A stretch of 64,000 nucleotides of DNA from Vicinamibacterales bacterium (GCA_041394725.1 JAWKHR010000034.1:3410-67409), one strand, 5' to 3'. Shown: positions 28,955 to 61,779, numbered from the stretch's first letter. The notes: generated by a model from the sequence alone, not told the origin. Translations and numbers: made by a program.

Positions 28955-30931
28955 CTACTTGCAGGCCTGGCAGTTGTGGTTGTTGATCGCGCCCATGCCC
29001 TCGAGGAGCTTGATCGTCTCCGGGAACGGCTGGGTGCGCTGCTCGGGGCTGTTGGCCATGTCGACGGTGGTCTGTCCGGACCGGGCCACGGCCATCACGT
29101 CGGCGCCCTTCGAGACGAGGTACTTGATCATCTCGTTGTCGCCGCGGGCGGCCGCATGGTGGAGCGCGGTGTAGCCGTCGGCGTCACGGATGTTCACGTC
29201 CACGCCGAGCTCCTCGATGAAGTACTTCGCGGCGGGCATCCAGCCCTCGGGCACGTGGCGGTGCTGCTGGGCCACGCGCGACGTCCCGTAGCCGACGCCG
29301 CTCGCGGCGTGGAACGGCGGCACGTGCGGACCGCCCGCGGGCACCGGGGGCAGCCCGGACGGGTCGTTCGGGCGCGCGCGCCCGCCGATCTGCATGGTCG
29401 GGATGTTCGGGTCGGCGCCGTAGCGGACGAGGAGGCGCATGGCCTCCACGTCGAGCGCGTAGGCCGCGCGCCAGAACGGCGTCGCGCCCTGGAACTCGAC
29501 GCCCATGCGGCCGGCGTTGTAGGCCGCGTACCAGATGTGGGTGTTGGTGCGGGCGTTGGGGTCGGCGCCGGCCTTGAGCAGCGCCTCCATGAGGTCGAGG
29601 TACGAGGTCGCATGGCCCTGCTGCTGGCCCGCGGTCGGCTGCGGGTACCAGGTCCGGAGCCGCCCACTCGCGCTGTTGAGCCGCCGCGAACAGCGGCGCC
29701 GCGCTGTCGTCGCTCGCGAGGTTCGGGTTCGCGCCCCGATCGAGCATGGCCTTCGCGAGGTCGAAGTTGCCGTTGATGACCGCGACGAAAGAATCGACAA
29801 CGTGATATACAACGTCGCCGGCCGAGGGCCGGTTGATGTCCATGCCGGCGTCGAGGAGCATCAGCGCGGCGCGCGTAGCGGTAGCCGTTCGCGCGCCGGC
29901 GTAGTGGAGCGCGGTGAAGCCGCCCTGTTTGCCGATCTGCTCGGTCGTCGGCATTCGCGCGCCGCGCCCGAGGCGGTTCACCGCGCTGCCCCGGCTGCCG
30001 AAGCCGCCGGGCTTCCGTCTGGCTTCTCTTGCCACCGCCACGCCCGGGCTTCGCCAGTCCTGGCGTCCGGCACGACCGGCGCCGCCGGCCCGGCCGAACC
30101 GCGGCCGCGCCGACCGCTCCTCGCCGCCCGCCGGCGCATCGCGCCCGCGATGCCTGGCCGCCGGCGCTGCCCGAGGCGCGTCCGGGCTTCGATGGTGGCC
30201 GATGCGGCGGAACCGCGCCGCCTGGCGCGACGCGTTGTCGTCGGTCGTGAGCCGCTTCACGTAGTCCACGACGTCGGTGGTCGCGGCGACGTTCGCGCCC
30301 CGGGCGATGAGCAGGCGCATGGCCTCGACGCGCCGTCGCGCGAGGCGGCGAAGGCGCCGCCTGCAGACCTTGTCATCACGCGCTCGATCTCGGCGCCGTG
30401 GTCGAGCAGCGCACCGATGGCCTCGGGGTTGCCGGCCTCGGCACCGCCAGGTGGATCGGCTCGACCCCCGGTGTCGGCGTGAACGTCGCCGCCGACGGCG
30501 CTGCCGGCCTCGAGTGGCAACGGTCCTTCGCGACGGCCGCGTTCTGCCCGCGCGAGGCGGCCAGGTGGAGCGGCGAAGCGGCCGAGGCGCGCGCTGACGT
30601 CGGTGGTCCGCACCTCGGCGACGAGGAGCACGCGGACATCAGGTCGGCGTCCCTGCTGAGGGCGGCCTCCAGTGCAGCGCCGTCATCCCGTCGCCCTGCG
30701 CCGCGTTGACGTCGGCGCCGTCACGAGCAGCGTGCGGACCGTGGCCGTGTCGCCATTTCGGCGTTCGGCGGCATCGGCGACCAAAGGGACCCGATCTGGC
30801 ATCGCGACGACTGGCGAATTCGATCGCACAGCGGCCGGACCCGCGGTCCGGATCGCGCGCGACGCCGCGGCCGGGCGACCTCGCGGGGCGGCCTCGACGA
30901 CGACGAGCATCAGGGACAGGCCGCCCACCAA
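28955..30931 (-). pseudogene. ankyrin-repeat protein, 5' two-thirds multiply frameshifted
   Basis: The 3' 700 nt are clean (SYLDLMEALLKAGADPNARTN...GYTALHHAAARGDNEMIKYLVSKGADV). Upstream ankyrin peptides are scattered over three frames: SPLHLAASRGQNAAVA (ORF 30376..30639), GNPEAIGALLDHGAEI (30257..30631), AMRLLIARGANVAATTD and GGFTALHYAG (29184..30320), ADAAERRNGDTATVRTLL (30683..30931). Confidence 0.75.
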
Positions 30932-46598: not shown

Positions 46599-49136
46599 TT
46601 AGGACCCGCAGAGTTCCCCGAGCCGCGCCGGGGCACTCGGTCGCATGGTTCGCGCCAGATCCGGCGCCGTCCCCGCGACGCGGTCCCACGCGTCGAGGCC
46701 GGCGCGGACCTCGCGGCACCCGGCCGCGCGCGTCTCCGAACGACGCCAGAGCGACTGCCCCATCGAGATGCGCGCGGAAGCGACCTGGCCGGCCACGAAG
46801 AACTGGTCCGGCGCCGCGCGGAGAATCGTCTCGCCCGCCGCGATCCCGTCGCGCAGCCGTCCGACGCCGGCCTCGTCCTGCCCGTCGCGGAGCAGCATCC
46901 GCCCGAGTGCCAGGTTGGTGAGCATCACGCCGATCCGGTTGCCCTGATCACTCGGCGCCTCGTCGCCGAGCGCGCCGATCGTCGCGGCCGCCCTGGTGAG
47001 CGCGTCGATCGCCTCGGGCCGCCGGCCGAGTGTCTCGAGCGCCTCGGCCTGCGTCGTCAGGATCATCGTCAGCGTCTGGCGATAGCGGGGGTTCGCCGGA
47101 TCGACGCGGAGGAGTTCGCCGGTCCAGGCCCGAGCGTCGGTGGCGACGCGCAGCGCCTCGCCGGCGCCGCGCGCGCGCAGGAGGGCCGTGGCGTAGTCGG
47201 GCGCGATGCGCGCGACCCGGGCGAGCGCGACGGCATCCGCGGGGGCCGCGTCGAGCTCGCGGCGCGCGAGGTCGAAGGCGCGCGCCAGCGTGCTCCGCGC
47301 CTCGTCGGGCGGGCTGGCGGATGCCTGCACGTAGCCGAGCTGGTGGAGCGCGGTCGCGAGGCGCGCGCCACGGCCCGGCCTCGACGCCGGCGCGGACTCG
47401 GCCAGCGCGACGGCGACCCGCGCGTGCTCGACCGCGCCGGGCAGGTCGCCCGTCACCGCCGCGAACCGGCTCAGCTCGATCCGGACGTGCGCCAGCTCGT
47501 CCACGTCCTCCGGCGCGCCGCCGGCGGCCACCGCCGTCTGGATGTCGAGGGCGCGGCGGTAGCTCTCGCGGGCGCCGGCGATGTCGCCGAGGTTCGACAC
47601 GCCCCCGCCGCCGAGGATCGCGCCCATCCGCAGGTAGGCGGCCGCCAGCTCGCGCTGCAGGCCGCGATCGTCGCGGGCCTCGCGGCTCAGGCCGTCGAGG
47701 TACTCGAGGCCGCGCTCGACGACCAGCCGGCGCGCGGGCAGCGAGCCGGGCAGGTCGGCGATCGCGTCGTGGAACTCGAAGAGGAACGCGTTGGCCATGC
47801 GCCGCACGTCGCCGAACCGGCGCTCGGCGTCGGCGCGCGCCCGCTGCGCGGCCCGCGCCTGGACGACGGCCACGGCCGCGGTCACGACGAGCGCGCCGAT
47901 CGCGATCGCCACGGCGGCCGAGGCCACCCAGTGGCGGCGGAGGAACGTCGCGGCACGGTACCGCGCCGTGTCGGGCGCGGCGAGCACCGGCCGGCCGTCG
48001 AGGTACCGCGCGAGGTCGTCGGCCAGCTCGGCCGCCGAGCGGTAGCGCCGCGCGGGCGACTTGCGCAGCGCCTTGAGCACGATGCGATCGAGGTCGCGGC
48101 GGATGCCGGGCACCGGCGGCGGCGCCCCGGCGTCCTGGCGCACCGCCTGCCCCGGCGGCGTGGGCGCCTGCTCGCGGATGGCCTGGATCCAGTCGGCTTC
48201 GGTCCGCGGCTCCGGCTGGTACGGCCCGCGGCGCGCGAGCAGCCGATACAGGAGCTGCCCGAGCCCGTAGATGTCGGCGGCCACCGTCACCGGCTCGCCC
48301 GTCACCTGCTCGGGACTCGCGCTCTCGAACGTCAACGCCCGCCACGTCGTCCGCGCGCGCGCCTCGGCCGGGTCGGCGCCGGGATCGGGATCGACCAGCG
48401 TGGCGATGCCGAAATCGAGGAGCTTCGGCACGCCGTCGGCCGTCACCAGCACGTTGCCCGGCTTGATGTCGCGATGGATGACCAGGTGCTGGTGCGCGTG
48501 GTGCACGGCGCCGCAGAGCGCGCGGACCAGCTCGATCCGGGCCGGCAGGTCGAGCCCCGCGCGGTCGCAGAAGGCGTCGATCGGCAGGCCCTCGACGTAC
48601 TCCATCACGACGTAGGGCTGGCCGTCGGGCGTCGTGCCGCCGTCGAGCAGCCGCGCGATGTTGGGATGGTCGAGCACCGCGAGAATCTGGCGTTCCTGCC
48701 GCAGCCGCGCGACCAGCGTGGCGGACGCCAGGCCCGCGTCCACCAGCTTGATGGCGACCTGCTGATCGAACTCGCCGTCCGACCGCGCGGCGAGGTACAC
48801 CCGCCCCATGCCGCCGCGGCCGATCTCCCGGACGATGCGGTACGGCCCGAGACGCGTGCCGGGCGACAGCGCGGCGTCGGGGTCGGCCGGCTCGGCCGCG
48901 CCGGCCCGGGCAGCCGCGGCGGCCGCGGCCGCCAGCGAAGGATCGGCCAGTGCCAGCGCCGGAACCTCGTAGAGGTCGGCCGCCGCGTGCGCGGCGGCGA
49001 CGAGCGCGTCCACCTCGCCACGCAGCGCGGCGTCGGGTCCGCACGCGGCGGCGAGGAACGCGTCGCGCGCGCTCACCTCCAGCTCCAGCGCCTCACCGGC
49101 GAGGTGCTTGATTCGCTGCCACTCGTCGCGCGTCAA
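46599..49136 (-). CDS. Ser/Thr protein kinase with TM segment and TPR-like sensor region
   Basis: 845 aa. GRGGMGRVYLA, VAIKLV, HRDIKPGNVLV, DFGIATLV. TM segment AAVAIAIGALVVTAAVAVV. Lies directly downstream of the ECF sigma gene. Confidence 0.9.
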   Translation of the reverse strand: MTRDEWQRIKHLAGEALELEVSARDAFLAAACGPDAALRGEVDALVAAAHAAADLYEVPALALADPSLAAAAAAAARAGAAEPADPDAALSPGTRLGPYRIVREIGRGGMGRVYLAARSDGEFDQQVAIKLVDAGLASATLVARLRQERQILAVLDHPNIARLLDGGTTPDGQPYVVMEYVEGLPIDAFCDRAGLDLPARIELVRALCGAVHHAHQHLVIHRDIKPGNVLVTADGVPKLLDFGIATLVDPDPGADPAEARARTTWRALTFESASPEQVTGEPVTVAADIYGLGQLLYRLLARRGPYQPEPRTEADWIQAIREQAPTPPGQAVRQDAGAPPPVPGIRRDLDRIVLKALRKSPARRYRSAAELADDLARYLDGRPVLAAPDTARYRAATFLRRHWVASAAVAIAIGALVVTAAVAVVQARAAQRARADAERRFGDVRRMANAFLFEFHDAIADLPGSLPARRLVVERGLEYLDGLSREARDDRGLQRELAAAYLRMGAILGGGGVSNLGDIAGARESYRRALDIQTAVAAGGAPEDVDELAHVRIELSRFAAVTGDLPGAVEHARVAVALAESAPASRPGRGARLATALHQLGYVQASASPPDEARSTLARAFDLARRELDAAPADAVALARVARIAPDYATALLRARGAGEALRVATDARAWTGELLRVDPANPRYRQTLTMILTTQAEALETLGRRPEAIDALTRAAATIGALGDEAPSDQGNRIGVMLTNLALGRMLLRDGQDEAGVGRLRDGIAAGETILRAAPDQFFVAGQVASARISMGQSLWRRSETRAAGCREVRAGLDAWDRVAGTAPDLARTMRPSAPARLGELCGS

Positions 49137-49169
49137 CGGCGTCGCGCCCCCGTGTGATCCTGTGGCGCC

Positions 49170-49772
49170 TCAGGGTTCCGGCTCGCCGGCGTCCCCTGCG
49201 AGTTCGCGGTGCAGCCAGCCCTTCGCCAGGGCCCACTCGCGCTTGACCGTGCCGGTCGAGACGCCGAGCGCCGCCGCGGTCTCCTCGATCGTCAGGCCGC
49301 CGAAGAACCGCAGCTCGACGAGCCGGCCTTGATCGGGGTCGAGCTGCTCGAGCCGGGTCAGCGCGCGGTCGAGCGCGAGCGTGTCCACCGCGTCGATCGC
49401 CTGGGGCTCCACCACCGACGCGGCCTCGTCCAGGCCGACGTGCACCTGCCGGCCGCCGCGCCGCTGCCGGCCCTCGCGCCGCGCGTGGTCCACCAGGATG
49501 CGCCGCATCATCTGCGCCGCGATCGCGAAGAAGTGCCCGCGATCCTGCCAGTCCACGTTCCGCTGTCCGACCAGCCGGAGGTAGGCCTCGTGCACGACGA
49601 CGGTCGTCTGCAGGCGCCCCTGGCGCCACTCGCGCGCGAGTTGTCGCGCGGCGAGCTGCCGGAGTTCCGCGTAGACGAGATCGATGACCCGATCGAGCGC
49701 CCCGCGATCGCCGGACTGCCATTCGCGGAGCAGCCGCGTGACGTCGGCGGTCGGCTCCACTGGGCGCTCCAT
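49170..49772 (-). CDS. ECF-type RNA polymerase sigma factor (kinase-associated group)
   Basis: 200 aa. VTRLLREWQSGDRGALDRVIDLVYAELRQLAARQL...VVHEAYLRLV...LVELRFFGGLTIEETAAALGVSTGTVKREWALAKGWL. Paralogous to the 24812..25396 gene. Confidence 0.9.
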   Translation of the reverse strand: MERPVEPTADVTRLLREWQSGDRGALDRVIDLVYAELRQLAARQLAREWRQGRLQTTVVVHEAYLRLVGQRNVDWQDRGHFFAIAAQMMRRILVDHARREGRQRRGGRQVHVGLDEAASVVEPQAIDAVDTLALDRALTRLEQLDPDQGRLVELRFFGGLTIEETAAALGVSTGTVKREWALAKGWLHRELAGDAGEPEP

Positions 49773-49835
49773 GGCTGGAGCGCCCAGTCTACTCCGGTCC
49801 GGCCGGCGCCCGTGACGGCACGCGGTCCGGTCGTT

Positions 49836-49883
49836 GCTGCGGCTGCAGCTGCGGCTGCGGCTGCGGCTGCGGCTGCGGCTGCG
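49836..49883. repeat. (GCTGCG)8 hexanucleotide microsatellite
   Basis: Eight contiguous units, the second being GCTGCA, read directly. It lies 64-111 nt upstream of the ECF sigma start codon. Confidence 0.95.
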
Positions 49884-49922
49884 ACCACGCTCGTGCCAGC
49901 GACCGCGACCGCGCCGGGACGA

Positions 49923-50330
49923 CTACCGGCCGAAGGACCCGGGCGAGTCGTTCTGGTCGTTCTTGTTCTGGTCCTTCATGTACTTGACCAGGTAGACCGT
50001 GCCGGCCAGCCCGATGATGGTGGAGATGAGCATCACCGCGGTGCCGCCGCCGCCCTGCGCCCGGATCCGGCGCGAAGCGGGACGGCCGAGCGGCGCGCGC
50101 GGGGTCGTTTGCGGTTCGGCGGTCGTGGCGGTCATGAAGGACGCGGCCCGGCGGGTGGCCTGGCGGAGCGACGGCGTGGACGGGCCGGCCGGGGCGAAGA
50201 ACTCCGTCGCACCGGTCGGGCGACCGGCGGGGCTCGGGGCCACGGGGCTCACCGTGGCGGGCACGGCGGCCGGCGCCACGAGCGACAGGGTGAGCAGCGG
50301 AACGGTCAGCGGGGTCCAGAAACCGGGCAT
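49923..50330 (-). CDS. small hypothetical protein with signal peptide and C-terminal TM anchor
   Basis: ORF 49923..50468 trimmed to ATG 50330 after ggag. MPGFWTPLTVPLLTLSLVAPAAVPA... and C-terminal TAVMLISTIIGLAGTVYLVKYMKDQNKNDQND, which is lower in GC. Confidence 0.5.
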   Translation of the reverse strand: MPGFWTPLTVPLLTLSLVAPAAVPATVSPVAPSPAGRPTGATEFFAPAGPSTPSLRQATRRAASFMTATTAEPQTTPRAPLGRPASRRIRAQGGGGTAVMLISTIIGLAGTVYLVKYMKDQNKNDQNDSPGSFGR

Positions 50331-50418
50331 CGGAGACTCCTTCGGGGCGAACGGACGCCGCCCCCTGTCCCCTACGCGCCGGATGCCGGCAATCCGGATC
50401 ACGCCGGGCGCGCGGACC

Positions 50419-51282
50419 TCAGGCCGGCGGGTCGATGGAGCCCGCCGCACCCGTGGTCCCGGACGCATCCAACGCTCCGGGCGCGGCGACCCGGCGGTAG
50501 CAGCCCGGCGAGATCATCTCGGCGAACCCGTCGGCCACCAGCGCGCGGTTGGCGCGCCCGGCCTCGGGACGCGAGACGCCGACCACGCGGGCCAGCTCGC
50601 CGCGGACGGTCAGGTGCGCGCCCGTGAGAAAGCACCGCGCGATCTCGCGCAGCGCGGTCTCGCGGTCGAGCCGACGCCGCAACGCGTCCGGGAACCGCCC
50701 GACGCCGAGCGTCCACAGGTAGGTGAAGAACGGTTCGTAGACGACGTCGCTCGGGATGACGATCATCGCGGCCTGCAGCTCGTCGAGGGCCCTGGTGAAC
50801 GCCGCGCGATCCGTGACGCCCGACGCCTCGCGCAGGTCCTTCGTCGCCATCTCCCACTCGTGGCGCAGCGGGCGAAGAATCCGGCGCGCGGCGGCGCTCA
50901 GGCGCTTCGGTTCGTCGGCGCGGCGGACGCCCCACACCGCGTGGAAGTACGGCAGCATCCTCGGCGCGATGAACATCGCGCGTCCCCGGGCGAGCTTCGC
51001 GTAGTAGACCTTGCCGCGCCGGAGCACCGCGTCCTTGAGTCGCCAGGTGAGCGACGCCTCCGGGTCTTTCTGGACGTTGCGCGGCATGACCGCGTCGCGG
51101 CGCCCGCACACGGCCAGGTAGAGCGACGGCCCCGGCCGTCGCGCGTCGGCGAGACACCCGGCAAAGCCCACCCGTTCGACGAACGCCTCCGCGTCCGCCG
51201 GCGTGGCCACCTGCCGCGCGCCCTCGCGACACCAGGCCGCGTCACGCAGGTCCTCAATCTCGTCGGGCACGGGGCCGGGCAT
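50419..51282 (-). CDS. hypothetical protein, winged-helix-like (function unknown)
   Basis: 287 aa with protein-like composition ([29 protein letters not shown]...[21 protein letters not shown]). There is a vague resemblance to wHTH DNA-binding families, which I cannot place. Confidence 0.55.
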
Positions 51283-51322
51283 GCGGGGGATCGTACAGGA
51301 AGGACGCGTGAGGCGAGGGTCA

Positions 51323-51366
51323 TGGGGCCCCCGGGAACCCCAGGACCCTGGGACCCTCGGGAACCA
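51323..51366. repeat. copy (reverse orientation) of the GGGTCCC/GGGACCC repeat element
   Basis: ggggcccccgggaaccccaggaccctgggaccctcgggaacc. Its reverse complement contains GAGGGTCCCAGGGTCCTGGGG. Confidence 0.6.
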
Positions 51367-51370
51367 CCCT

Positions 51371-51389
51371 CACATAGGTTACGTCTGTG
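51371..51389 (+). promoter_or_regulatory. candidate PadR operator remnant
   Basis: CACATAGGTTACGTCTGTG (CACA-N11-TGTG), 15 nt upstream of the truncated PadR start. It resembles the palindrome at 62977-62997 (shared ATAG-TTAC...CTGTG). Confidence 0.35.
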
Positions 51390-51403
51390 CAAATACCAAC
51401 CCG

Positions 51404-51526
51404 ATGCTCACCTCCGAAGTTCGCAAGGGCAGCGCGGAGCTGCTGATCCTGGGGGCGCTCGACGCGCGGCGGTGGCGGGCCTTGCGGGAGACCGTCGAGC
51501 ACCGCGACGCGCGCCTGCCCGGCTAG
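51404..51526 (+). pseudogene. PadR-family regulator remnant (first ~19 codons fused to repeat-derived tail)
   Basis: MLTSEVRKGSAELLILGALD is a typical PadR N-terminus. From 51460 the sequence is the 650-bp repeat (ARRWRALRETVEHRDARLPG*), identical to the tail of the gene ending at 57092. Confidence 0.6.
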
Positions 51527-52113
51527 GTGCGGTCATCATCCCGGGAGGCACACATGCACCGTGCGACGCCGGCCGGCCGGGGAGTGGGCCTCCTGCTGAT
51601 CGTGCAGCTCGCGGGCCTGATCGTGCCGTTCGTGCTGCTGCGTCCGGTCACGGGCGCGCCGGTGGAGATCCTGGCGCACGCGGCGCCGTCCGAGGGCCTC
51701 ATCGGCGTGGCGCTCGGCCTTCTGCTCGCGAACGGCCTGCTGACGATCGGCATCAGCCTGGCCACGTTCGACGTCTTCCGTCGCGCGAGCGCCGCGGCCG
51801 CGCGCTGGGTGCTTGTGGCCGCCGTCCTCATGGTGGCGACGCAGGCGCTCGACGACGTGCAGGTGCTGTCGCTCGTGGCGCTCAGCCGGCAGGCCGTGGG
51901 CGCCGAGGCACCGGACACAATCCTTGCGCTCGCGGTGACGACGGCGGCGGCGCGGCGCTGGACGCACCTGACCGCGATCCTGGCCATCGACGGGTGGATC
52001 CTCGCGTTCTACGTGGCGCTCTTCCGCGGCACCGCTGTCCCGCGCGCGGTGCTGGCGTTCGGCACGCTGACGGCGCTGCTGCACCTCGCCGGCATCCCGG
52101 TGACCGCGGGCCT
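51460..52113 (+). repeat. dispersed direct repeat, copy A (~650 bp)
   Basis: Hand alignment to 57026..57669 gives roughly 98% identity, with about 6 substitutions and about 8 small length differences. Confidence 0.85.
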
Positions 52114-52168
52114 CTTCGCCGTGGTGGACAAGGTCCTGCTCGATCCGCTGCCGTTCGCCAACTTCTGA
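51554..52168 (+). CDS. DUF4386-like membrane protein (intact frame, non-native C-terminus)
   Basis: ATG 51554 after gggagg. MHRATPAGRGVGLLLIVQLAGLIVPFVLL... has 5-6 hydrophobic segments. After ~52113 it leaves the repeat and ends ...TAGLFAVVDKVLLDPLPFANF*. Confidence 0.7.
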   Translation: MHRATPAGRGVGLLLIVQLAGLIVPFVLLRPVTGAPVEILAHAAPSEGLIGVALGLLLANGLLTIGISLATFDVFRRASAAAARWVLVAAVLMVATQALDDVQVLSLVALSRQAVGAEAPDTILALAVTTAAARRWTHLTAILAIDGWILAFYVALFRGTAVPRAVLAFGTLTALLHLAGIPVTAGLFAVVDKVLLDPLPFANF

Positions 52169-52169
52169 T

Positions 52170-54380
52170 CGCCTCGTACATCGCGGGGTCGGCGCCGGGG
52201 TCGGACCTGCCGGACGAGTTCGGCGTGTCGGCCGAGTTCCTGGTCCGCGACACGAGGTCGACGCGCCTCGAGGGCCTGTCGACGTTCAACTGTTCACGTC
52301 CACGCTCCGCGTCGGCGATCGCGTCGAGCGGATCCGCACGCGTCGCAGCCGACCTCCACGCTCTTCACCACGCTCTGGCGCCACGCCCGTGCTCGGCCGC
52401 CTGCCGGTGGACGCCGATGACGACCACGTCGCGGTGATCAGCGACCGGCTCTGGCAGACCTGGTTCGACCGCGACCCGGCCGTCGTCGGGCGCGTATACA
52501 TCTCGGGACGCAACCGGGAGATTGTGGGCGTGGATGGCCCCGAGTTCCGGTTCCTGGACGACGGGACGCTGCCGTGGATGTCGAGCCGCATCCGCGAGGA
52601 GGGCCTGGTGCCGGGCCGGTTCGCATGTGGCTGGTGGCCGGATGGCGCCGGGCGCGGATCCGGCGCAGGTGGCCACGGGATCGCTGGACACGCTCGCGCG
52701 CTACCTGCCGGCGCGCTTCGGCGGCAGCGCCGCCTACGCGCACGTCATCGGACGGTTCCACGCGATCGTGCGTCCGCTCGACGAGGCGCTGCTCGGCGGC
52801 GTGGCGCGGCCGCTCTGGACTTCTTCGCGCGACGCGATCGTGTTCGTCATCGCTCGCGCGAACGTCGCGAACCTGTTCCTGGTGCGCGCCGAGACGCGCC
52901 AGCGCGACCTCGCCCTGCGCCGGGCCATCGGCGCCGGGCGCGGCCAGCTCGTCCGGCTGCAGCTGGCCGAGGCGTTGAAGTCGTGGCGGCTGCGGCGGGC
53001 GTGCTCGCCGTCGGCCTCGCGGCACTGACGCTGCCGGTCTTTCTGCGCGCGGCGCCGGCCGGGATCCCGCGGATCGAGGACGTCACGCTCACGGCGCGCA
53101 CTGTTCTTCACGCTCGGCGTGGCCGCGCTGGCCGCGCTCGCCCGTGGCCCGTCCTGGCGCTCCGCGCGTCGCGGCCTGACTTCGCGCGCCTGCGCGACGG
53201 CGCGCGGCACCACGCGCGCCAGGCGGTGGACGCGCTCACGGGCTGGTCGCCGCGCAGACCGCGCTCGCGCTCGTGCTGCTCATCGGGTCCGGCCTGCTGC
53301 TCCGCAGCTCTGGGCACTCCGCCACGTGGACCGGCTACGACACGCGCGACGTGTTCACGTTCCAGATCGTTCAGACCGCACCAACGACGGCCCGACCCAC
53401 GCGCGGTTCGACCTGGACTTCATGGATCGTTCGCGCGCGCTGCCCGGCGTCGAATGGCTGGTCTCGTGGAGAACGTGCCGCTGAACGAGTCGCCCGCCAC
53501 CGTGCGGCTGCGGTCCAAGGCCGGCCCGACGCGCCGGACGGGACGCTGGTCGGCCTGGATGCTCGCCGCGGGCGACTACTTCCAGACGATGCGCATCGAG
53601 CGCCTGGCCGGCCGGACGTTCGAGAACGCCGACCACCTCCTCGGGGCAGCCGCAGGTCATCCTCAGCCGGGATGGCGGCGCGCGCCCTGTTCCCGGACGG
53701 CGACGCGATCGGCCGGCGCGTGCAGATCGTCGGCCGACGACCTCGACACCGTCGTCGGCGTCGTCGACGACGTCCCGCAGAACGACTCGCGAGACGCCGG
53801 CCCCGCTGACCTACTACCCGCTCGTGGGCCCGACGCCGATGAGCTGCGCCATCTCCTCGCCGGCCTACGTGGTGCGGACGCCGCGCGCTCGACCATCGCC
53901 GGCGACATCCAAGCCGGCTGGCGCACGAGGTCGCGCCCGAGGCGCCGATGGCGCCTGCACGATGGACCAGCTCGCCGCGGACTCGATGGTCAGCGTCTCG
54001 TTCACCATGCTCACGCTCGGTGTCGCCGCGGGCCTCGCGCCGCTCGTCCTCGGCGCGGTCGGCCTCTACGGCGTCCTTTCCTACGTCGTCGCGCAGCGCA
54101 CGCGCGAGATCGGCGTGCGCCTGGCGCTCGGCGCGCGCGAACGGACGTGCGCTGGATGGTGGTCCTGCAGGGCGCGCGGGTCACCGGCATCGCGGTCGGC
54201 GTGATGGTCGCCGTCGCCGCCACGCGCGCGCTCGGCAGCCTCCTCTTCGACGTCGCGGCCGTCGACGCCGCGACGTTCGTCGCGATGTCCACCTCGGCGT
54301 TGTCGTCGGCCTGGTGGCCAGCTACGTGCCGGCCTGGCGCGCGTCCGCTGGTGATCCGATCGTGTCGCTGCGGGGAGTAG
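52170..54380 (+). pseudogene. ADOP/MacB-like permease lacking its 5' end and multiply frameshifted
   Basis: Family peptides are spread over three frames: HVAVISDRLWQTWFDRDPAVVGRVYISGRNREIVGV (52389 frame), IARANVANLFLVRAETRQRDLALRRAIGAGRGQLVRLQLAEAL (52522 frame), [26 protein letters not shown] (53824 frame), and the tail VASYVPAWRASAGDPIVSLRG (53948 frame). Confidence 0.75.
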
Positions 54381-54437
54381 CAGAGGGTCCCGAGGCCTGG
54401 AAGGTGGGGCGACCGTCCCGAGGGCCGGCGAGCCAGA

Positions 54438-55461
54438 ATGACGCGCGTGGCCCACGTGCGCCGCCTGGCCGTCGCCCTGACGCTGGCAACTGGCGTCGTG
54501 CTGCTCCTCAGATCGCAGCGGACCACGGGCGGGCTCGCCGTGCTCGGCCGCACGCACGCTGGCGGTCGTCGCCACGCTGGTGTTCGGGCTGTTCGAGCGG
54601 GTGCCGCGGCGTCTGCCGTCGTGGCTGTCGCGCTGGGTGCTGCAGGTCGTCGGCGCGTCGGCGTCGCGATCCCGGTGACCACGGTCACCCTGGTATTCCT
54701 CGGCTTTCGGCTCGACGCCGCTGTTCTGGCAGGTCACCACCCGCATGAACGGCTTCATGATGCTCACCTCTCGGGTCCTGATCGCGTTGTGGACGGCGCT
54801 GGCGGCCGATCCGCCAGAAGGACGCGTTCGCGCGCGACCAGGCGACGTTCGCGCTCGAGCGCAGCGAGCTCGAGCGACAGGCGCTACCGATGCCCGCCCG
54901 CACCTGCTGCAGGCGCAGGTCGCGCCGCACTTCCTGTTCAACACGCTCGCTAACGTCCAGGCCCTCGTCGACGCCGGGTCGCCGCAGGCGTCACGTTGCT
55001 GCGCGGCCTCACTGGGTACCTGCGCGTCGGTCCCCGCGATCAACGACCCGGCGGCGACGCTCGGCGCGAGGTCTGTTTCGTCACGGGCCTACCTCGACCT
55101 GATGCGGATGTGGATGCCCGACCGGCTGCATTACGAGCAGCACGTGGACGAGGCGGCGCTCTCGGTGAAGTGTCCGCCGGTCACACTGCTGACGTGCTGG
55201 TGGAGAACGCGGTGCGACACGGCATCGATCCCAGCGAGGACGGCGGCCGCATCGTCATCGACGTCCGGCGGCAGGGCAGCGCTGCGTGATCCGCGTCATG
55301 ACACCGGCGTCGTATTCGCGCCTCGCAGGCCTCTTTCGGCACCGGGGCCAGGCGATGCCCGCGAGCGGCTCCAGCTGATGTTCGGCGGCGAGTCTGCCCG
55401 CGTCGTCGCACAGGAATCGCGCGGCGTCTGCGCTGAGCTCGACGTCCCGGTGCGGGCCTGA
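54438..55461 (+). pseudogene. LytS/YehU-type sensor histidine kinase, frameshifted
   Basis: LLQAQVAPHFLFNTLANVQALVDAGSPQA (ORF 54745..55461) and LVENAVRHGIDPSEDGGRIVIDVRRQG (ORF 54996..55289) lie in different frames. The membrane N-terminus is in a third frame. Confidence 0.7.
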
Positions 55462-55471
55462 GGGCCGGGAG

Positions 55472-56259
55472 ATGTCACGACCGACCGCTCTCATCGCCGA
55501 CGACGAACCGCCCTGCGGACGCTGCGGCGCCAGCTCGCCGTCGCCTGGCCGGAACTCGACGTCGGGCCGAGGCGCGAAACTTGCCGAGGCGATCGCGCGG
55601 TTCGACGGTCAGCCCGCCGTCTGCTTCCTCGACATCCGGATGCCCGGCCTCTCCGGCCTGACGCGACGCACATCGGACGTCGCGCGCACATCGTGTTCGT
55701 CACGGCCTACGACCGCTACGCGATCCAGGCGTTTTGGCGGCTGGCGCTCGATTACCTGCTCAAGTTCGTCGAGCCTGCGCGGTCGCCGAGACCGTCGCGC
55801 GGCTGAAGGAACGCGTCGCCGCGGCCACGCCGGCGGTGAACACCGCCTCCGCGATCGAGGCGCTGGCCACCCGGCTCGCGGACCTTCACGCCGCGGAAGG
55901 CGCCGCCGGCGCGCCCCGGCGTGGCTGCGGATCCGCGCGCAGGCCGGGCAGACGCTCCGCCTGATTCCCGTGGATGACGTGGACTACCTTGCGGTCCGAC
56001 GCGAAATACACGGTGGTCGCGTGACGACGAGGACGGGACGGCCACAGGCGAGGCAGTGGCATGGACCGCGCTGAAGGACCTGGTGCCGCAGCTCGATCCG
56101 GCACGCTTCGCGCAGGTCCACCGCTCGGTCGTCGTCAACCTCGGCGCGATCAGCCACGTCACGCGGCAGGATCACGACCGGGCGGACATCCACCTGAAGC
56201 GGCGGCCGGACGTCCTGCCAGTCAGCCGGCGCTACCTCCACCTGTTCCGGCAGATGTAG
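55472..56259 (+). pseudogene. LytTR-family response regulator, frameshifted
   Basis: The receiver start MSRPTALIADDEP (55472) soon loses its frame. The LytTR end ALKDLVPQLDPARFAQVHRSVVVNLGAISHV...LPVSRRYLHLFRQM is in ORF 56056..56259. Confidence 0.75.
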
Positions 56260-56331
56260 CTCGTCGGCGCCTGGCGCCGTCCATGCCCCGATCGCCGCCG
56301 TCCGTCGCATGGCCCGCCGAATCGCCCGGCG

Positions 56332-57092
56332 TTGCGCCAGAGTGGCGGCATGCGCGACCCCGGCGCCTTCTGGCCGCAACGGGCCGCCCGGCTGAGCGGC
56401 CTCCTCTACGCGATCATCATCGCCGCCGGCATCCTCGCCGAGCTGGTCGTCCGCGAGCGGCTCCACGTGGCCGGCGACGCCGCGGCGACCGCCGATCGGA
56501 TCCTGGCGAACGAGGCGCTGTTCCGGTGGGGATTCGCGGCCGAGCTCTTCGCCGCGCTGTGCGTGATCCCGCTCATCTACCTGCTCTACGAACTGCTGAA
56601 GGACGCGAACCGGCACGTGGCCCGCACGGCCATCTTCTTCTCGCTGGTCGGCACGGCCGTGCAGGTCACCGCGCTGCTCGGCCACTTCGCGCCGCTCAGC
56701 CCGCTGAAGACGTCATGGCCGCCGGCCTGACGACTGACCACACCCGCGCCCTCACCGACGTGGCCCTCCGCCTGCAGAGCGTCGGCTACGCGATGGGGCT
56801 CGCGTTCTTCGGCGGGACGATGCTGTGCCGCGGGGCATTCGATCGTGCGCTCGGCGCTCCTGCTGCGGGTCATCGGGATCGCGCTGATGATCGAGGGCAT
56901 CGTGGTACGGCGCGAACAGCTTCACCGATTCCCGTCGCGCCGCCGTTCGCCAGGGCCGTGTTCCAGGTCCTGATGGTGACCGGCCTGGCGGAGCTGGCCC
57001 TGTGCGTCTGGCTGCTCGTGAGGCACGACGCGCGGCGGTGGCGGGCCTTGCGGGAGACCGTCGAGCACCGCGACGCGCGCCTGCCCGGCTAG
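56332..57092 (+). pseudogene. DUF4386-like membrane protein, frameshifted
   Basis: The N-terminal 130 aa (LLYAIIIAAGILAELVVRERL...ILANEALFRWGFAAELFAALCVIPLIYLLYELL) are in ORF 56332..56730. The remainder (VALRLQSVGYAMGLAFFGG...VTGLAELALCVWLLVRHD) is in the frame of ORF 56061..57092. Confidence 0.65.
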
Positions 57093-57669
57093 GTGCGGTC
57101 ATCATCCCGGGAGGCACACATGCACCGTGCGACGCCGGCCGGCCGGGAGTGGGCCTCCTTGCCGATCGTGCAGCTCGCGGGCCTGATCGTGCCGTTCGTG
57201 CTGCTGCGTCCGGTCACGGGCGCGCCGGTGGAGATCCTGCGCACGCGGCGCCGTCCGAGGGCCTCATCGGCGTGGCGCTCGGCTTCTGCTCGCGAACGGC
57301 CTGCTGACGATCGGCATCAGCCTGGCCACGTTCGACGTCTTCCGTCGCGTGAGCGCCGCGGCCGCGCGCTGGGTGCTTGTGGCCGCCGTCCTCATGGTGG
57401 CGACGCAGGCGCTCGACGACGCAGGTGCCGTCGCTCGTGGCGCTCAGCCGGCAGGCCGTGGGCGCCGAGGCACCGGACACAATCCTTGCGCTCGCGGTGA
57501 CGACGGCGGCGGCGCGGCGCTGGACGCACCCGACCGCGATCCTGGCCATCGACGGTGGATCCTCGTTCTACGTGGCGCTCTTCCGCGGCACCGCTGTCCC
57601 GCGCGCGGTGCTGGCGTTCGGCACGCTGACGGCGCTGCTGCACCCGGCCGGCATCCCGGTGCGCGGCCT
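57026..57669 (+). repeat. dispersed direct repeat, copy B
   Basis: See copy A. Copy B continues on both sides into contexts that look native for DUF4386 genes. Confidence 0.85.
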
Positions 57670-57790
57670 GCCGGGCTACGGCGCCATCGCCCGGATGGGG
57701 CCGCCGATGGCCCTCGGGCAGCTGGTGCTGGCGGCGTGGTTGATCTGGCGGGGTTCGGGGAGGGTGGGACCCGGCAGCCGGGTGACCACC
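57120..57790 (+). pseudogene. DUF4386-like membrane protein (repeat copy B), frameshifted; 3' end approximate
   Basis: It has the same start context as 51554 (gggaggcacacATG). The frame is lost repeatedly relative to copy A. The native-looking tail GYGAIARMGPPMALGQLVLAAWLIWRG is in ORF 57377..58636. Confidence 0.6.
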
Positions 57791-57904
57791 TGCGCGACCG
57801 GCGCGGGAGCCTCCCGTCCGTCCGCACCATTTTCCGCAGGCCACGTGAAGGCACGCTGCAGAGAGCCGCTGGAGCCTGACGGCGGCCCGCTCCAGGCCGC
57901 CGTC

Positions 57905-58572
57905 TCACCGTCCTGCCGCCCGGTCGCGCCGCGCCACGACGTCGAGCGTCACTTCCAGCGCGTCCTTCACGCGCACTGTGCCGAGCCCGGCGGTGACGGG
58001 CTCGATCCCGAAGTCCGTCTGCTTGAACCGGCACGTGCCGGTCAGGCGCAGGACGTCGCCGTCGACGGTCACCGGGCCCGTGACGTCGATCGATCGCGTC
58101 ACGCCATAGCCTCAGGTCGCCGGTCACGACGGCGTTCAGCGCCATCGGTGCCGGTGGTGGACGCGTCGTCCGGCGCCGCATCGGCCGGCCTCACATCGAC
58201 CGACGTCGAGTCGAACGAGATCATCGGATACCGCGCGACATCGAGGACCTCCGGACCGAGCATCGTCCGCTGCACCTCGGGTACGTCGTCGGGCGGCTCG
58301 CCTTCGGGATCGACGCGCAGGGCACCGGCCTCGAACGCCAGATGCACGACCGATCGCCCGGGCGCGTCGCGATCGAACGCGATCGTCCCCGACAGGCGTG
58401 GCGCGTGGATCTCGTGCGTGTGCCCGACAAAGCCAAACAGTCCGGTCTTCCCGACGAGGATCGTCACGTGGCTGGCCGCGGCGTCGATCGTCCAGGTTCC
58501 CATGGCCCGTGGCCCGGCGAAGATGGGGGCGACCAGAAGCGACGTGAACAGTGCGACGGAGCGCAGGGACAT
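57905..58572 (-). pseudogene. YceI-like periplasmic protein, frameshifted near 58100-58190
   Basis: The 5' part is ORF 58099..58572 (signal peptide, TWTIDAAASHVTILVGKTGLFGFVGHTHEI). The 3' part is ORF 57905..58102 (VTVDGDVLRLTGTCRFKQTDFGIEPV). The linking peptide ALNAVVTGDLRL sits in a third frame (ORF 57444..58181). Confidence 0.7.
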
Positions 58573-58742
58573 GAGGATCGAAGGTGCAAGACGCCTGCCA
58601 CGGCGGACGACGGCCCGTCGCCCGCCTCGCCGCTGACGACGACGGTGGGCGGCCGGCGGCGTCCATGGCGACGGACATCGAAGCTGCTCGGGGCGATGGC
58701 GGTGCGCGCTCGCGTGGAGGAGTGATCGTCGATCGAAGGGGC

Positions 58743-58819
58743 TGGCGCGCCCGGCAGGACTCGAACCTGCGACCCTCGGCTTAGAAGGCCGATGCTCTAT
58801 CCACCTGAGCTACGGGCGC
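58743..58819 (-). tRNA. tRNA-Arg (anticodon TCT), CCA encoded
   Basis: The reverse complement folds by hand into a cloverleaf: GCGCCCG-TA-GCTC-AGGTGGATA-GAGC-A-TCGGC-CTTCTAA-GCCGA-GGGTC-GCAGG-TTCGAGT-CCTGC-CGGGCGC-G-CCA. 77 nt. Confidence 0.9.
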
Positions 58820-58836
58820 GTGTGGGCATTGTACGA

Positions 58837-58867
58837 GGTCCTGAGGGTCCCCGGGCCCCGTTCGAAC
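58837..58867. repeat. copy of GGTCCTGAGG/GGGTCCC element with GTTCGAAC palindrome
   Basis: ggtcctgagggtccccgggccccgttcgaac, beginning 18 nt from the tRNA 5' end. Confidence 0.6.
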
Positions 58868-58895
58868 TTTCGCGCCGAATGCGGGATCATGACCC

Positions 58896-60545
58896 CATGC
58901 ACTCGAGCCTCGCCGAAGGGCGTGCGGCGTTCGCGCGGGAGGCGTGGGCGGAGGCGTACGCGCGGCTGGCGGAGGCCGACGGTGAGTCGCCGCTCGAGGC
59001 CGAGGATCTCGACCGGCTCGCCACGGCGGCGGTGCTCGTCGGACGCGAGGCCGAGGGGGCCGGCGCGCGGGCGCGCGCGTACCAGGCCTTCCTCGACCGC
59101 GGCGAGACGCGTCGCGCGGCACGAAGCGCCTTCTGGATGGCCTTCGCGCTGTTCGAGCGGCGCGGCCAGCAGGCGCAGGCCGGCGCGTGGATGACCCGCG
59201 CCAGACGCCTGCTCGACTCGACGCCCGGCGGCGCGACGCCGTGCGCCGAACAGGGCTTCCTGCTGTGCGCGGCCGGCCTGCAGATGATGGAGGCCGGCGA
59301 TCCCCACGGCGCGCAGGCGCACTTCGAACGCGCCGCGGCGATCGGCGCCGCCTGCGGCGATGCGGACGTCACCGCGCTCGCCCGCCAGGCCATCGGTCGC
59401 GGACTGATCCGCCAGGGCCGTGCGGCGGAGGGCTTCGCGCTCCTCGACGAAGCGATGCTCGGCGTGACGACGGGCGAAGTCGGCCCCCTCATGGCCGGCG
59501 TCGTCTACTGCAGCGTCATCAGCGCCTGCCACGACGCGTTCGACTGGCCTCGCGCGCAGGAGTGGACCAGCGCGCTCGCCGGGTGGTGCGACGCGCACCC
59601 GGACATGGTGCCGTTCCGCGGCGCCTGCCTGGTGCGCCGCTCGGAGGTGCTGCAGCTCCACGGCGACTGGCCGCACGCCCTCGACGAGGCGCGGCGGGCG
59701 TGCGACTGGCTGCGACGGCAGCCCGACCGGCCGGATCTCGGCCTCGCCCTCACGCAGCTCGCCGATCTGCACCGCCTGCGCGGCGATCTCGACGAAGCGG
59801 ACCGGACCTATCGGGCCGCGAGCCAGGCCGGCGCCCGCGTTCTGGCCGGCCTGCCCCTGCTGCGCCTCGCGCAGGGCGAAGCCGAGGCGGCGTGCGCCGC
59901 CGTCCGCCGGGCCCTCGAGGACACGCGCACGCCGCGCGCCCGCGCGCTGGTGCCGCTGCGCGTCGCCGTCGAGGTGCGGCTGCGGAGGGTGACGTCGCCG
60001 GCGCGCGCGAGGCGGTGCCGACGCGCTCGCCCGCTTCGCCGCCGAGGTGGACGCGCCCTACCTCCACGCGGCGGCCGCGACCGCCGCCGGCGCCGTCGCG
60101 CTCGAGACCGGAGACACGGGCGCCGCGCTCACCGCGCCCGAGACGCGCAGGCGCGCTGGGCCGACCTCGACGCGCCAGACGAGCTCGGCGCGTCCGCGCG
60201 CTCGTCGGCCGCGCCTGCCAGCGGATGGACGACCACGACGGCGCCGCCTCGAGTTCGACGCCGCGACCGAGATCTTCGAGCGCCTGGTCGCTGCACCCGA
60301 CAGACACGCGTCGCCGCGTGGGCCGCCGACGCCGCGCGCCCGCCGGACACCCGGGGCGACCTGACTGGCCGCGAACCGCCGAGGTCCTGCGTCTCGTGGC
60401 CACCGGGCGCACCAACCGGGCCATCGCCAGCCGACCTCGGCATCAGCGAGAAGACCGTCGCGCGGCACGTGAGCAACATTCGACAAGCTGACCTGTCCTC
60501 CCGACCGCCGCCACGGCCTACGCCTACGAGCACCGCCTCGTCTGA
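58896..60545 (+). pseudogene. LuxR-family regulator (TPR-like N-terminal region + C-terminal HTH), 3' third frameshifted
   Basis: ATG 58896 (MHSSLAEGRAAFAREAWAEAY...) is clean to about 59970. After that, AEVDAPYLHAAAATAAGAVALETGD (ORF 60047..60364), AEVLRLVATGRTNRAIA (ORF 59187..60491) and DLGISEKTVARHVSNI (ORF 58792..61779) lie in different frames. Confidence 0.75.
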
Positions 60546-60635
60546 GCGTGGGTCGAATTACCCATCCCCGCGCCTCCCCGCCTGCACAGTCCGGCCGATG
60601 CCTTCGGGCCCCCGGGTTCGCGACGATGAGGGCAG

Positions 60636-61779
60636 ATGGAGGGCCTCATGCACGACACCGGCATCACCCAGCGTATCGACACGGTCGTCATCGGCGGCGG
60701 ACAGGCGGAGTTCCTGGTCGGCTACCACCTGGCGCCGCGGCGTGCCGTTCGTGATGCTCGACGCCGCCGATCGGACGGCGACGCCTGGCGGCGGCGATGG
60801 GATTCGCTGCGCCTGTTCACGCCGGCGAAGTTCTCCGGCCCGGCTTCCCGTCTCTCGCCCCACCGAACTCGTTTCCCACGAAGGACGGAGATGGCCGACT
60901 ACCTCGAGGCCTACGCCCGCCGCTCGATTCGCCCGTCTGCTCCGCGACGCGCGTGGAACGGCTCGCGGCGCGGCGATCGCTTCCCTGGTCGTCACGGCCA
61001 CCGAGCAGCGCGACGCGGCGCGCACGTGGTCGTCGCGATGTCCGGCTACCAGCGGCCGAAGGTCCCGCCGTTCGCGCGTGAGCTCCGGCCGACATCGTCC
61101 AGATCCACTCGTCCGACTACTGGAGCCCGTCGGCGCTGCGCGCGGGCCGCGTGCTCGTCGTCGGCAGCAACTCGGGCGCGATCGCGAAGGAACTCGCACC
61201 GACACACGAGACGTGGATGGCCGGCCAGGACGTCGGCGAGATCCCGCACGACGTGGTTCGCCGGCTACGGCTCGCGCCCGTGCGGCTGACCCTGCGCGGC
61301 GTGTTCCACCGCGTCCCGACGGTCTCGACCCTGCTCGGGCGCCGCGTGCGCGCGAAGATGCTGCACGGCAGCGGCCTGCTCATCCGCACCAAGCGCCGGC
61401 ACCTCGCCGCCTCGCGCGCGTGACGATGGCGCCGCGCGTGGCGGGCGTCACGGACGGATGGCCGCGGCTCGCGGACGGCCGCGTGCTCGACGTCGCGAAC
61501 GTCGTCTGGTGCACCGGCTATCACCCGGGCTTCTCGTGGATCGACCTGCCGGTCTTCGACGCCGCCGGCGACCCGCGCCACCAGCGCGGCATCGTCCCCG
61601 GCGAGCCCGGGCTGTACTTCGTCGGCCTGCATTTTCTCTACGCGCTCTCGTCCGGGATGATCCACGGCGTGGGACGGGACGCGAGGCGGGTGGTGGAGCG
61701 CATCGTTGAGGGTCCTGAGGGTCCCAGGGCCCCAGGGTCCCAGGGTTCCAGGGTCCTCGAGGAACGGATGCGGGCGTAG
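60636..61779 (+). pseudogene. flavin-dependent (FMO/CzcO-like) NAD(P)/FAD oxidoreductase, frameshifted up to ~61420
   Basis: IDTVVIGGGQA (GxGxxG), GDAWRRRWDSLRLFTPAKFSG and MADYLEAYARR are in ORF 60636..61289. HVVVAMSGYQRPKVPPFAREL follows. The clean tail VVWCTGYHPGFSWIDLPVFD...GLYFVGLHFLYALSSGMIHGVGRDA is in ORF 58792..61779. The last ~20 codons are repeat-element sequence. Confidence 0.7.
61708..61762. repeat. copy of GGTCCTGAGG + GGGYCCCAG array element
   Basis: gagggtcctgagggtcccagggccccagggtcccagggttccagggtcctcgagg. It overlaps the 3' end of the FMO-like reading frame. Confidence 0.65.

Follow-up and report, generated by a model that had tools for sequence, protein, structure and literature searches.

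A 6-kb frameshifted block beside a tRNA gene in a Vicinamibacterales draft genome: probable uncorrected consensus error rather than clustered gene decay

Fragmentation of genes by indel-rich consensus derived from long reads is well documented, especially for metagenome-assembled genomes (MAGs) of low coverage (PMC9262707; PMC12007338; PMC8442456), and disruption of adjacent genes is likewise a mark of the decaying islands and pseudogene clusters attributed to deletional bias (Mira, Ochman and Moran, 2001, as cited in PMC4938668). Here we consider a block of about 6 kb, located at positions 52163 to 58195 of a 64,000-nt stretch of DNA from a Vicinamibacterales bacterium (GCA_041394725.1, JAWKHR010000034.1:3410-67409; this whole stretch is called the window below), in which an ADOP permease, a LytS-type sensor kinase, a LytTR regulator, two DUF4386 genes and the 3′ part of a YceI-like gene can be followed only by repeated switching of the reading frame. 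With errors of long-read and hybrid consensus the block has in common small insertions and deletions (indels) at least as frequent as substitutions, a bias towards deletions, the presence of redundant contigs in the assembly, genes split across frames with their protein information intact, and a problem that is worst in low-coverage regions of MAGs and at unmerged contig ends. It differs from them in that the errors are gathered in sharply bounded patches of kilobase scale, making up ~0.5-1% of the genome, and are not distributed evenly, and in that they are only mildly homopolymer-associated and commonly include 2-nt deletions. With decaying islands it shares the disruption of neighbouring genes, the net loss of bases and the position beside a tRNA gene, but it contains no nonsense mutations, large deletions or insertion sequence (IS) elements, its substitutions are far too few for the number of indels, its edges lie inside genes and an equally old paralogous copy is free of damage. 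Judging from the internal evidence of the assembled sequence, the block most probably represents consensus error of a draft assembly, biased towards deletions and left uncorrected, and not a biological feature, a reading to which we assign a probability of about 0.88.

Since GC content of the window amounts to 72-75% and long open reading frames (ORFs) exist in every frame, ORF lists alone are uninformative, and periodicity of GC at third codon positions (GC3) was exploited instead, by means of a sliding profile and a 7-state Viterbi segmentation comprising six coding phases and a non-coding state. The latter divided the region 52166-58144 into 32 segments, averaging 187 nt and separated mostly by changes of frame on the same strand, while 5.5 kb of the left flank (46660-52165) fell into 4 long segments and the right flank (58145-60018) was clean. 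Of the 28 coding segments shorter than 200 nt in the whole window, 22 fall within the block, and the sliding profile of GC by codon phase agrees with the segmentation. Summed over all genes of the block, frame changes number at least 57 in ~6.03 kb. The left edge was placed at ~52163, within the ADOP gene at about codon 58, and the right one at ~58145-58195, within the YceI-like gene. GC3 stays at 0.85-0.97 within the correct frames of the block. All this bears out an earlier note on this DNA, made from the sequence only, which had described a 6-kb block with every gene frameshifted, a switch of frame every 50-200 nt and edges cutting through genes; each of the gene families that it had named was confirmed by Pfam and NCBIfam. 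Two of its statements require amendment. The surroundings of the block, reported as clean, do read cleanly on the left and on the right, but what had been taken for a clean DUF4386 gene (copy A) is no intact gene and represents a 652-nt partial duplicate; and the block, real as it is, is not solitary, as further blocks were found at ~60019-61406 and at ~29.7-30.7 kb of the window and in ~34 clusters genome-wide. A compositionally foreign island was ruled out, for GC content of the block (0.69-0.75) equals that of the flanks. Programmed frameshifting and an alternative or quadruplet code were ruled out as well, given ~57 sites, shifts in both directions and the lack of a common motif. Looked for as a sign of deletion polymorphism, microhomology of the two edges was confined to a 9-mer present at both, which is compatible with chance.

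Frameshifts were counted using a custom frameshift-aware alignment of protein to DNA, with intact orthologues as queries that came from other genera within the family, the nearest being only ~70-73% identical at the DNA level. Whether orthologues are intact in related genomes was a check proposed in the earlier note, and those of the ADOP permease, the kinase and the regulator are indeed intact in other genera (G013, G023). The ADOP alignment (52064-54376, against the orthologue from G013) includes 26 shifts and no in-frame stop, with 495 of 751 codons identical (66%), and one more shift probably falls at the last codon; the kinase (54426-55455, against G023) requires 10 shifts, again with no in-frame stop, at 60% identity, and the regulator (55484-56256, against G023) 8 shifts, with no stop in matched codons, at 68% identity. 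A single stop symbol in an inserted, unmatched codon of the regulator, between two nearby +1 shifts, is read as a local alignment artefact. Identities of 60-68% are near normal, as compared with 70% between the intact ADOP orthologues of G013 and G023. Of the 44 events in the three genes, 37 are deletions, 22 of them of one nt and 15 of two nt, and 7 are insertions of one nt. None of the deletions in these alignments exceeds a few codons, and no in-frame stop was met in their ~1,330 matched codons and no IS element in the block. Apart from ~1% small indels and ~1% substitutions, coding information of the locus is fully kept.

Part of the block can be compared with a trusted sequence, the clean repeat copy A, of which the block contains a noisy counterpart, copy B. 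Over the 646 nt of B, four 1-nt deletions, three 2-nt deletions, one 1-nt insertion and 6 substitutions distinguish it from A, and the offset between the copies falls stepwise from the initial spacing of 5,566 nt to 5,559. Small indels therefore dominate the differences and are biased towards deletions (7 against 1 insertion), in agreement with the earlier remark that the two copies differ mostly by shortenings of 1-2 nt. The entire frame damage sits in B, whereas A, a truncated chimera of no obvious function on which constraint should be equally lacking, keeps one frame over 652 nt with no break; if both copies had drifted neutrally, the chance of finding all 8 indels in one named copy would by our estimate be ~0.004. 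At least two of the three 2-nt deletions in B lie outside simple repeats. In mutation-accumulation experiments with high-GC M. smegmatis, 856 substitutions were recorded versus 207 small indels, of which 79% occurred in simple repeats, and insertions exceeded deletions 2.1-fold (PMC4938668).

These figures are pertinent to the alternative of real clustered pseudogenisation, according to which an accessory island beside tRNA-Arg lost its function, perhaps after a rearrangement that destroyed PadR and the 5′ end of ADOP, and is decaying by bacterial deletion bias. The block does adjoin a tRNA gene and a structural rearrangement, its genes are accessory, the conserved positions of ADOP exhibit an excess of departures, and intact orthologues in other genera are what would be expected if only this copy decayed. 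Still, the ratio of indels to substitutions is at least 1:1 (8 to 6 in the comparison of B with A), as opposed to ~1:4 or lower in mutation-accumulation data, and at least 57 frameshifts have accumulated with no nonsense codon, large deletion or IS element among them. Damage is confined to copy B and spares the equally unconstrained copy A, although such paralogous sequences should decay alike; the edges lie inside genes, and neither GC3 nor codon phase is diminished. Moreover, pyrK, pyrD and pyrF elsewhere in the genome are equally damaged and have a clean duplicate on an overlapping contig, which shows a technical cause. Taken together, this makes decay an unlikely explanation for the block.

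The genome belongs to a soil representative of Vicinamibacterales (Acidobacteriota) and is available as a draft of 123 contigs (5.48 Mb, 72% GC) with 3.3% contamination, which serves as species representative. When it was scanned in 3-kb intervals, the median number of state changes was 3, and 15 regions reached at least 12; ~34 clusters with at least 4 adjacent same-strand frame switches were counted, striking such unrelated genes as pyrK-pyrD-pyrF, pilB/pilT, radical-SAM, SQR/DsrE-like, BNR/sortilin and another ADOP. Enrichment of noisy clusters at contig ends was not evident, 13 of the 34 being within 15 kb of an end and more than half of the genome being, by estimate and not by computation, that close. 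Inside the window, the frame of the TPR-LuxR gene located beyond the tRNA is lost at 60019-61089 in the Viterbi path with a further switch at 61406, and peptides of the LuxR helix-turn-helix (HTH) domain are split between frames within a false ORF of 995 aa (58792-61779); the codon-phase signal breaks up also at 29682-30658, within an ankyrin-repeat gene, which is probably another error patch.

Where such sequences are present twice in the assembly, one copy is clean and its partner frameshifted. The genes pyrK, pyrD and pyrF, frameshifted in C39:55.2-58.1 kb, are each in a single frame in C23:99.3-101.8 kb, within an unmerged reverse-complement overlap of contig ends (C39:54924-64989 versus C23:92534-102501; 10.2 kb, 92.4% identity, 343 mismatches, 244 gap openings). 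Similar unmerged reverse-complement overlaps of ends join C54:33028-41556 to C52:34243-42816 (8.6 kb, 96.4%) and C65:1-5587 to C10:1-5528 (5.6 kb, 96.1%). The noise of C39 and C23 is complementary: stretches with disturbed frames in C39 are clean in C23, with the gaps in C39, and further on the roles are swapped. In noisy-versus-clean pairs deletions relate to insertions as 16:4, 47:30 and 19:8, the events mostly measure 1-2 nt and indels are roughly matched in number by mismatches, which is the spectrum seen in the window block. In addition, nine small contigs of 1.6-7.1 kb (C99, C103, C109, C110, C111, C114, C115, C119 and C123; C118 behaves likewise and was left out of the comparison) duplicate internal parts of large contigs with 98-99.9% identity, and they probably account for the 3.3% of "contamination". 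In these nine whole-contig pairs 34 bases are missing in the large contig and 5 in the small one (21:0 for C22/C111), and such an asymmetry between large and small contigs stems from the way in which the sequences were put together and has no biological origin. The same signature recurs irrespective of gene function. Contigs C38 and C39 are both 64,989 nt long; as a pair they are absent from the contig similarity searches, and the equal length is probably a coincidence.

The same data weigh upon two further readings. The indels might be real if localised error-prone synthesis, for instance ImuA/ImuB/DnaE2-dependent filling of gaps after breaks, left 1-2-nt deletions at ~1% density in ~30 sharply bounded tracts of 1-6 kb, as an indel-type bacterial analogue of clustered hypermutation. 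Sharp bounds, sizes of 1-6 kb and the uniform density of small deletions would suit such a process. However, no known bacterial process yields ~1% indels over kilobases, genes of pyrimidine biosynthesis and of pili would have been inactivated by it in one lineage, and the clean and noisy duplicates at contig ends, as well as the 34:5 asymmetry, are properties of an assembly and not of a cell, so that we regard this scenario as extremely improbable. According to the other reading, two strains or haplotypes of a metagenome differ at this place, and a mosaic containing spurious indels came out of their joint assembly. The contamination of 3.3% and the redundant contigs, identical by 98-99.9% with 0.1-2% mismatches, suggest strain variants in the bin; mixing of strains alone, though, gives substitutions or collapsed variants and not a one-sided excess of 1-2-nt deletions. 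A mixed-population consensus, which would be a sub-type of artefact and no true rival, is accordingly rated as very unlikely.

Consensus error, considered in the earlier note at least as likely as decay, is therefore favoured by the indel ratio, the polarity of the damage, the lack of stops and the pairs of clean and noisy duplicates. It may have come about as follows. The main contigs would carry a raw, deletion-biased consensus that was corrected almost everywhere, with some segments of kilobase scale escaping correction or polishing. In overlapping ends and duplicated segments accurate reads apparently went to one copy only; in the case of the block under study, a competing contig would have been left out of the bin, or the segment would have lacked coverage by accurate reads. 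Edges of the block would then be edges of a technical segment, so that they ignore gene boundaries and cut ADOP and YceI.

Several observations fit this explanation less comfortably. Apart from the 652-nt repeat, the assembly holds no second copy of the block, unlike the blocks of pyr, C54 and C65, and capture of polishing reads by one of two copies would here be assumed by analogy only. The read-through ADOP protein departs from the consensus at 9.1% of the columns conserved by at least 95%, as compared with a mean of 1.35% and a maximum of 4.6% for 40 homologues. Such an excess fits ~1% substitution error combined with undetected compensating shifts and the position of the query as an outgroup, with 11 of the 29 departures lying within 5 columns of a frameshift, but it is also compatible with a certain genuine relaxation of selection, so that the outcome of this comparison is intermediate. 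Deletions of 1 nt are only mildly enriched in homopolymers (33 of 56, with a baseline of ~41%), which implies that the noise is no pure error of homopolymer type. Finally, ADOP is devoid of its first ~39 codons and, if the junction with copy A is real, would count as a genuine pseudogene even with all errors removed.

The main value of the case is a warning. The genome, a species representative, contains ~30 kilobase-scale patches of false frameshifts, unmerged overlaps of contig ends and redundant small contigs, and calls of pseudogenes, gene loss, "split genes" or long ORFs in it are to be distrusted until it is re-polished, the artificial 995-aa ORF of LuxR and the flavin-monooxygenase-like (FMO) gene being an example of a misleading call. 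Error patches explain oddities in pilB/pilT, GT4, imuB, the ankyrin gene and LuxR/FMO. Should the attribution to consensus error be wrong, the block would testify to an unknown process of localised indel mutagenesis. Features of the locus are collected in Table 1.

Table 1. Coordinates of the frameshifted block, of its genes and of adjacent features in the 64,000-nt window
Feature	Position	Strand	Remarks
Frame-error block	52163..58195	.	~6.0 kb; at least 57 frame-breaking indels, ~1 per 100 nt; edges +/-60 nt
PadR-family regulator, 5′ stub (~20 codons)	51397..51456	+	Cut at left junction of copy A
Repeat copy A	51457..52108	+	Clean 652-nt partial duplicate of 57023-57668; fused in frame to ADOP codon ~40
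ADOP permease (MacB_PCD + FtsX)	52109..54380	+	Without first ~39 codons; 26 frameshifts, no in-frame stop
LytS-type sensor histidine kinase (His_kinase PF06580)	54438..55458	+	10 frameshifts, no in-frame stop; Pfam
LytTR response regulator (Response_reg + LytTR)	55472..56259	+	8 frameshifts; Pfam; stop TAG 56257-56259
DUF4386 gene 1	56332..57092	+	At least 3 frameshifts (Viterbi); PF14329 positions 2-209 of 210, 127.6 bits
Repeat copy B	57023..57668	+	Noisy counterpart of copy A
DUF4386 gene 2	57093..57775 (3′ end approximate)	+	Frameshifted; complete C-terminus ...GQLVLAAWLIWRG; PF14329 positions 15-210 of 210
YceI-like gene	57905..58572	-	5′ ~380-430 nt clean; 2-3 frameshifts in 3′ part; stop 57905-57907
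tRNA-Arg(TCT)	58743..58819	-	Intact (ARAGORN); in clean 1.8-kb gap between two error blocks
Second error block	60019..61406	+	3′ third of TPR-LuxR gene and most of flavin-monooxygenase-like (FMO) gene

To the left of the block a Ser/Thr kinase, an ECF sigma factor and an AlkZ-related gene are encoded on the minus strand and are clean; they are followed by the PadR stub, copy A, ADOP, the LytS-type kinase, LytTR, the two DUF4386 genes, YceI (on the minus strand), tRNA-Arg(TCT), TPR-LuxR and the FMO-like gene. The underlying locus looks like an ordinary accessory cluster with genes that are probably intact. A search with the AlkZ-related flanking gene for metagenome sequences of the same species gave a best match of only 87% amino acid identity, with no synteny.

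The arrangement at the left edge is reminiscent of PadR-ADOP pairs of Acidobacteria (TIGR03433 and TIGR03434), since the start of a PadR gene is followed by an ADOP permease; it differs from them in that a 652-nt copy of DUF4386 sequence stands in place of the 3′ part of PadR and of the first ~39 ADOP codons. The stub is by itself too short for a Pfam match, and its peptide ...EVRKGSAELLILGAL corresponds to the start of the PF03551 domain in a PadR paralogue (C21:71678-71713, directly before the PadR hit at C21:71708). Copy A begins within the C-terminal tail of DUF4386-1 (...DARRWRALRETVEHRDARLPG, followed by the stop) and continues through the first ~85% of DUF4386-2, so that its Pfam match to DUF4386 (PF14329) is partial, covering positions 3-180 of 210 of the profile hidden Markov model with 44.3 bits. 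From copy A the ORF runs into TAGLFAVVDKVLLDPLPFAN, a peptide corresponding to residues ~40-59 of the ADOP orthologue. The frame is kept across both junctions, of which the right one includes ~14 nt (GTGACCGCGGGCCT) assignable to either parent. Fusions on both sides imply that the missing parts of PadR and ADOP were replaced by the copy of downstream sequence, and this rearrangement may reflect either a templated insertion in the genome itself or a misassembly at the structural level. That "DUF4386 copy A" is a partial duplicate joined to a PadR stub and to ADOP codon ~40 is a point absent from the earlier note. The first frameshift (~52163) lies ~55 nt past the end of copy A, and, given one error in ~100 nt, the noise may set in exactly at the 52108/9 junction. 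About 100 PadR-family genes exceed the Pfam cut-off in the 5.5-Mb genome, many of them beside ADOP paralogues, and this abundance is a typical acidobacterial expansion.

Read through its frameshifts, the ADOP protein covers positions 35-801 of 803 of TIGR03434 with 561 bits, staying below the cut-off of 622 because its N-terminus is missing and errors are present; Pfam recognises MacB_PCD and FtsX in it, in two stretches each. Approximately 5,500 homologues were retrieved, with 100% query coverage for homologues of ~807 aa, E-values down to ~1e-291 and the best of them labelled Vicinamibacterales; a near-identical intact copy was not found in this search of the protein database, the nearest homologue being 64% identical. 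The His_kinase sensor adjoins the regulator with its Response_reg and LytTR domains, as is proper to LytS/LytTR two-component systems, and the pair is syntenic in G023. DUF4386-2 reaches 34.0 bits with PF14329, which, like the scores of DUF4386-1 and the YceI-like gene, is above the gathering score, and bears 8 indels relative to copy A. In the YceI-like gene the shifts are located at about 58195, 58144 and 58090, and translation along the Viterbi path matches positions 1-150 of 150 of PF04264 with 61.6 bits. Interspersed intergenic elements of the GGTCCTGAGGGTCCC or (GGGTCCCAG)n type, which look like repetitive extragenic palindromic (REP) sequences, occur in both orientations at 51329-51365, 58813-58859 and 61687-61762, one of them beside the tRNA.

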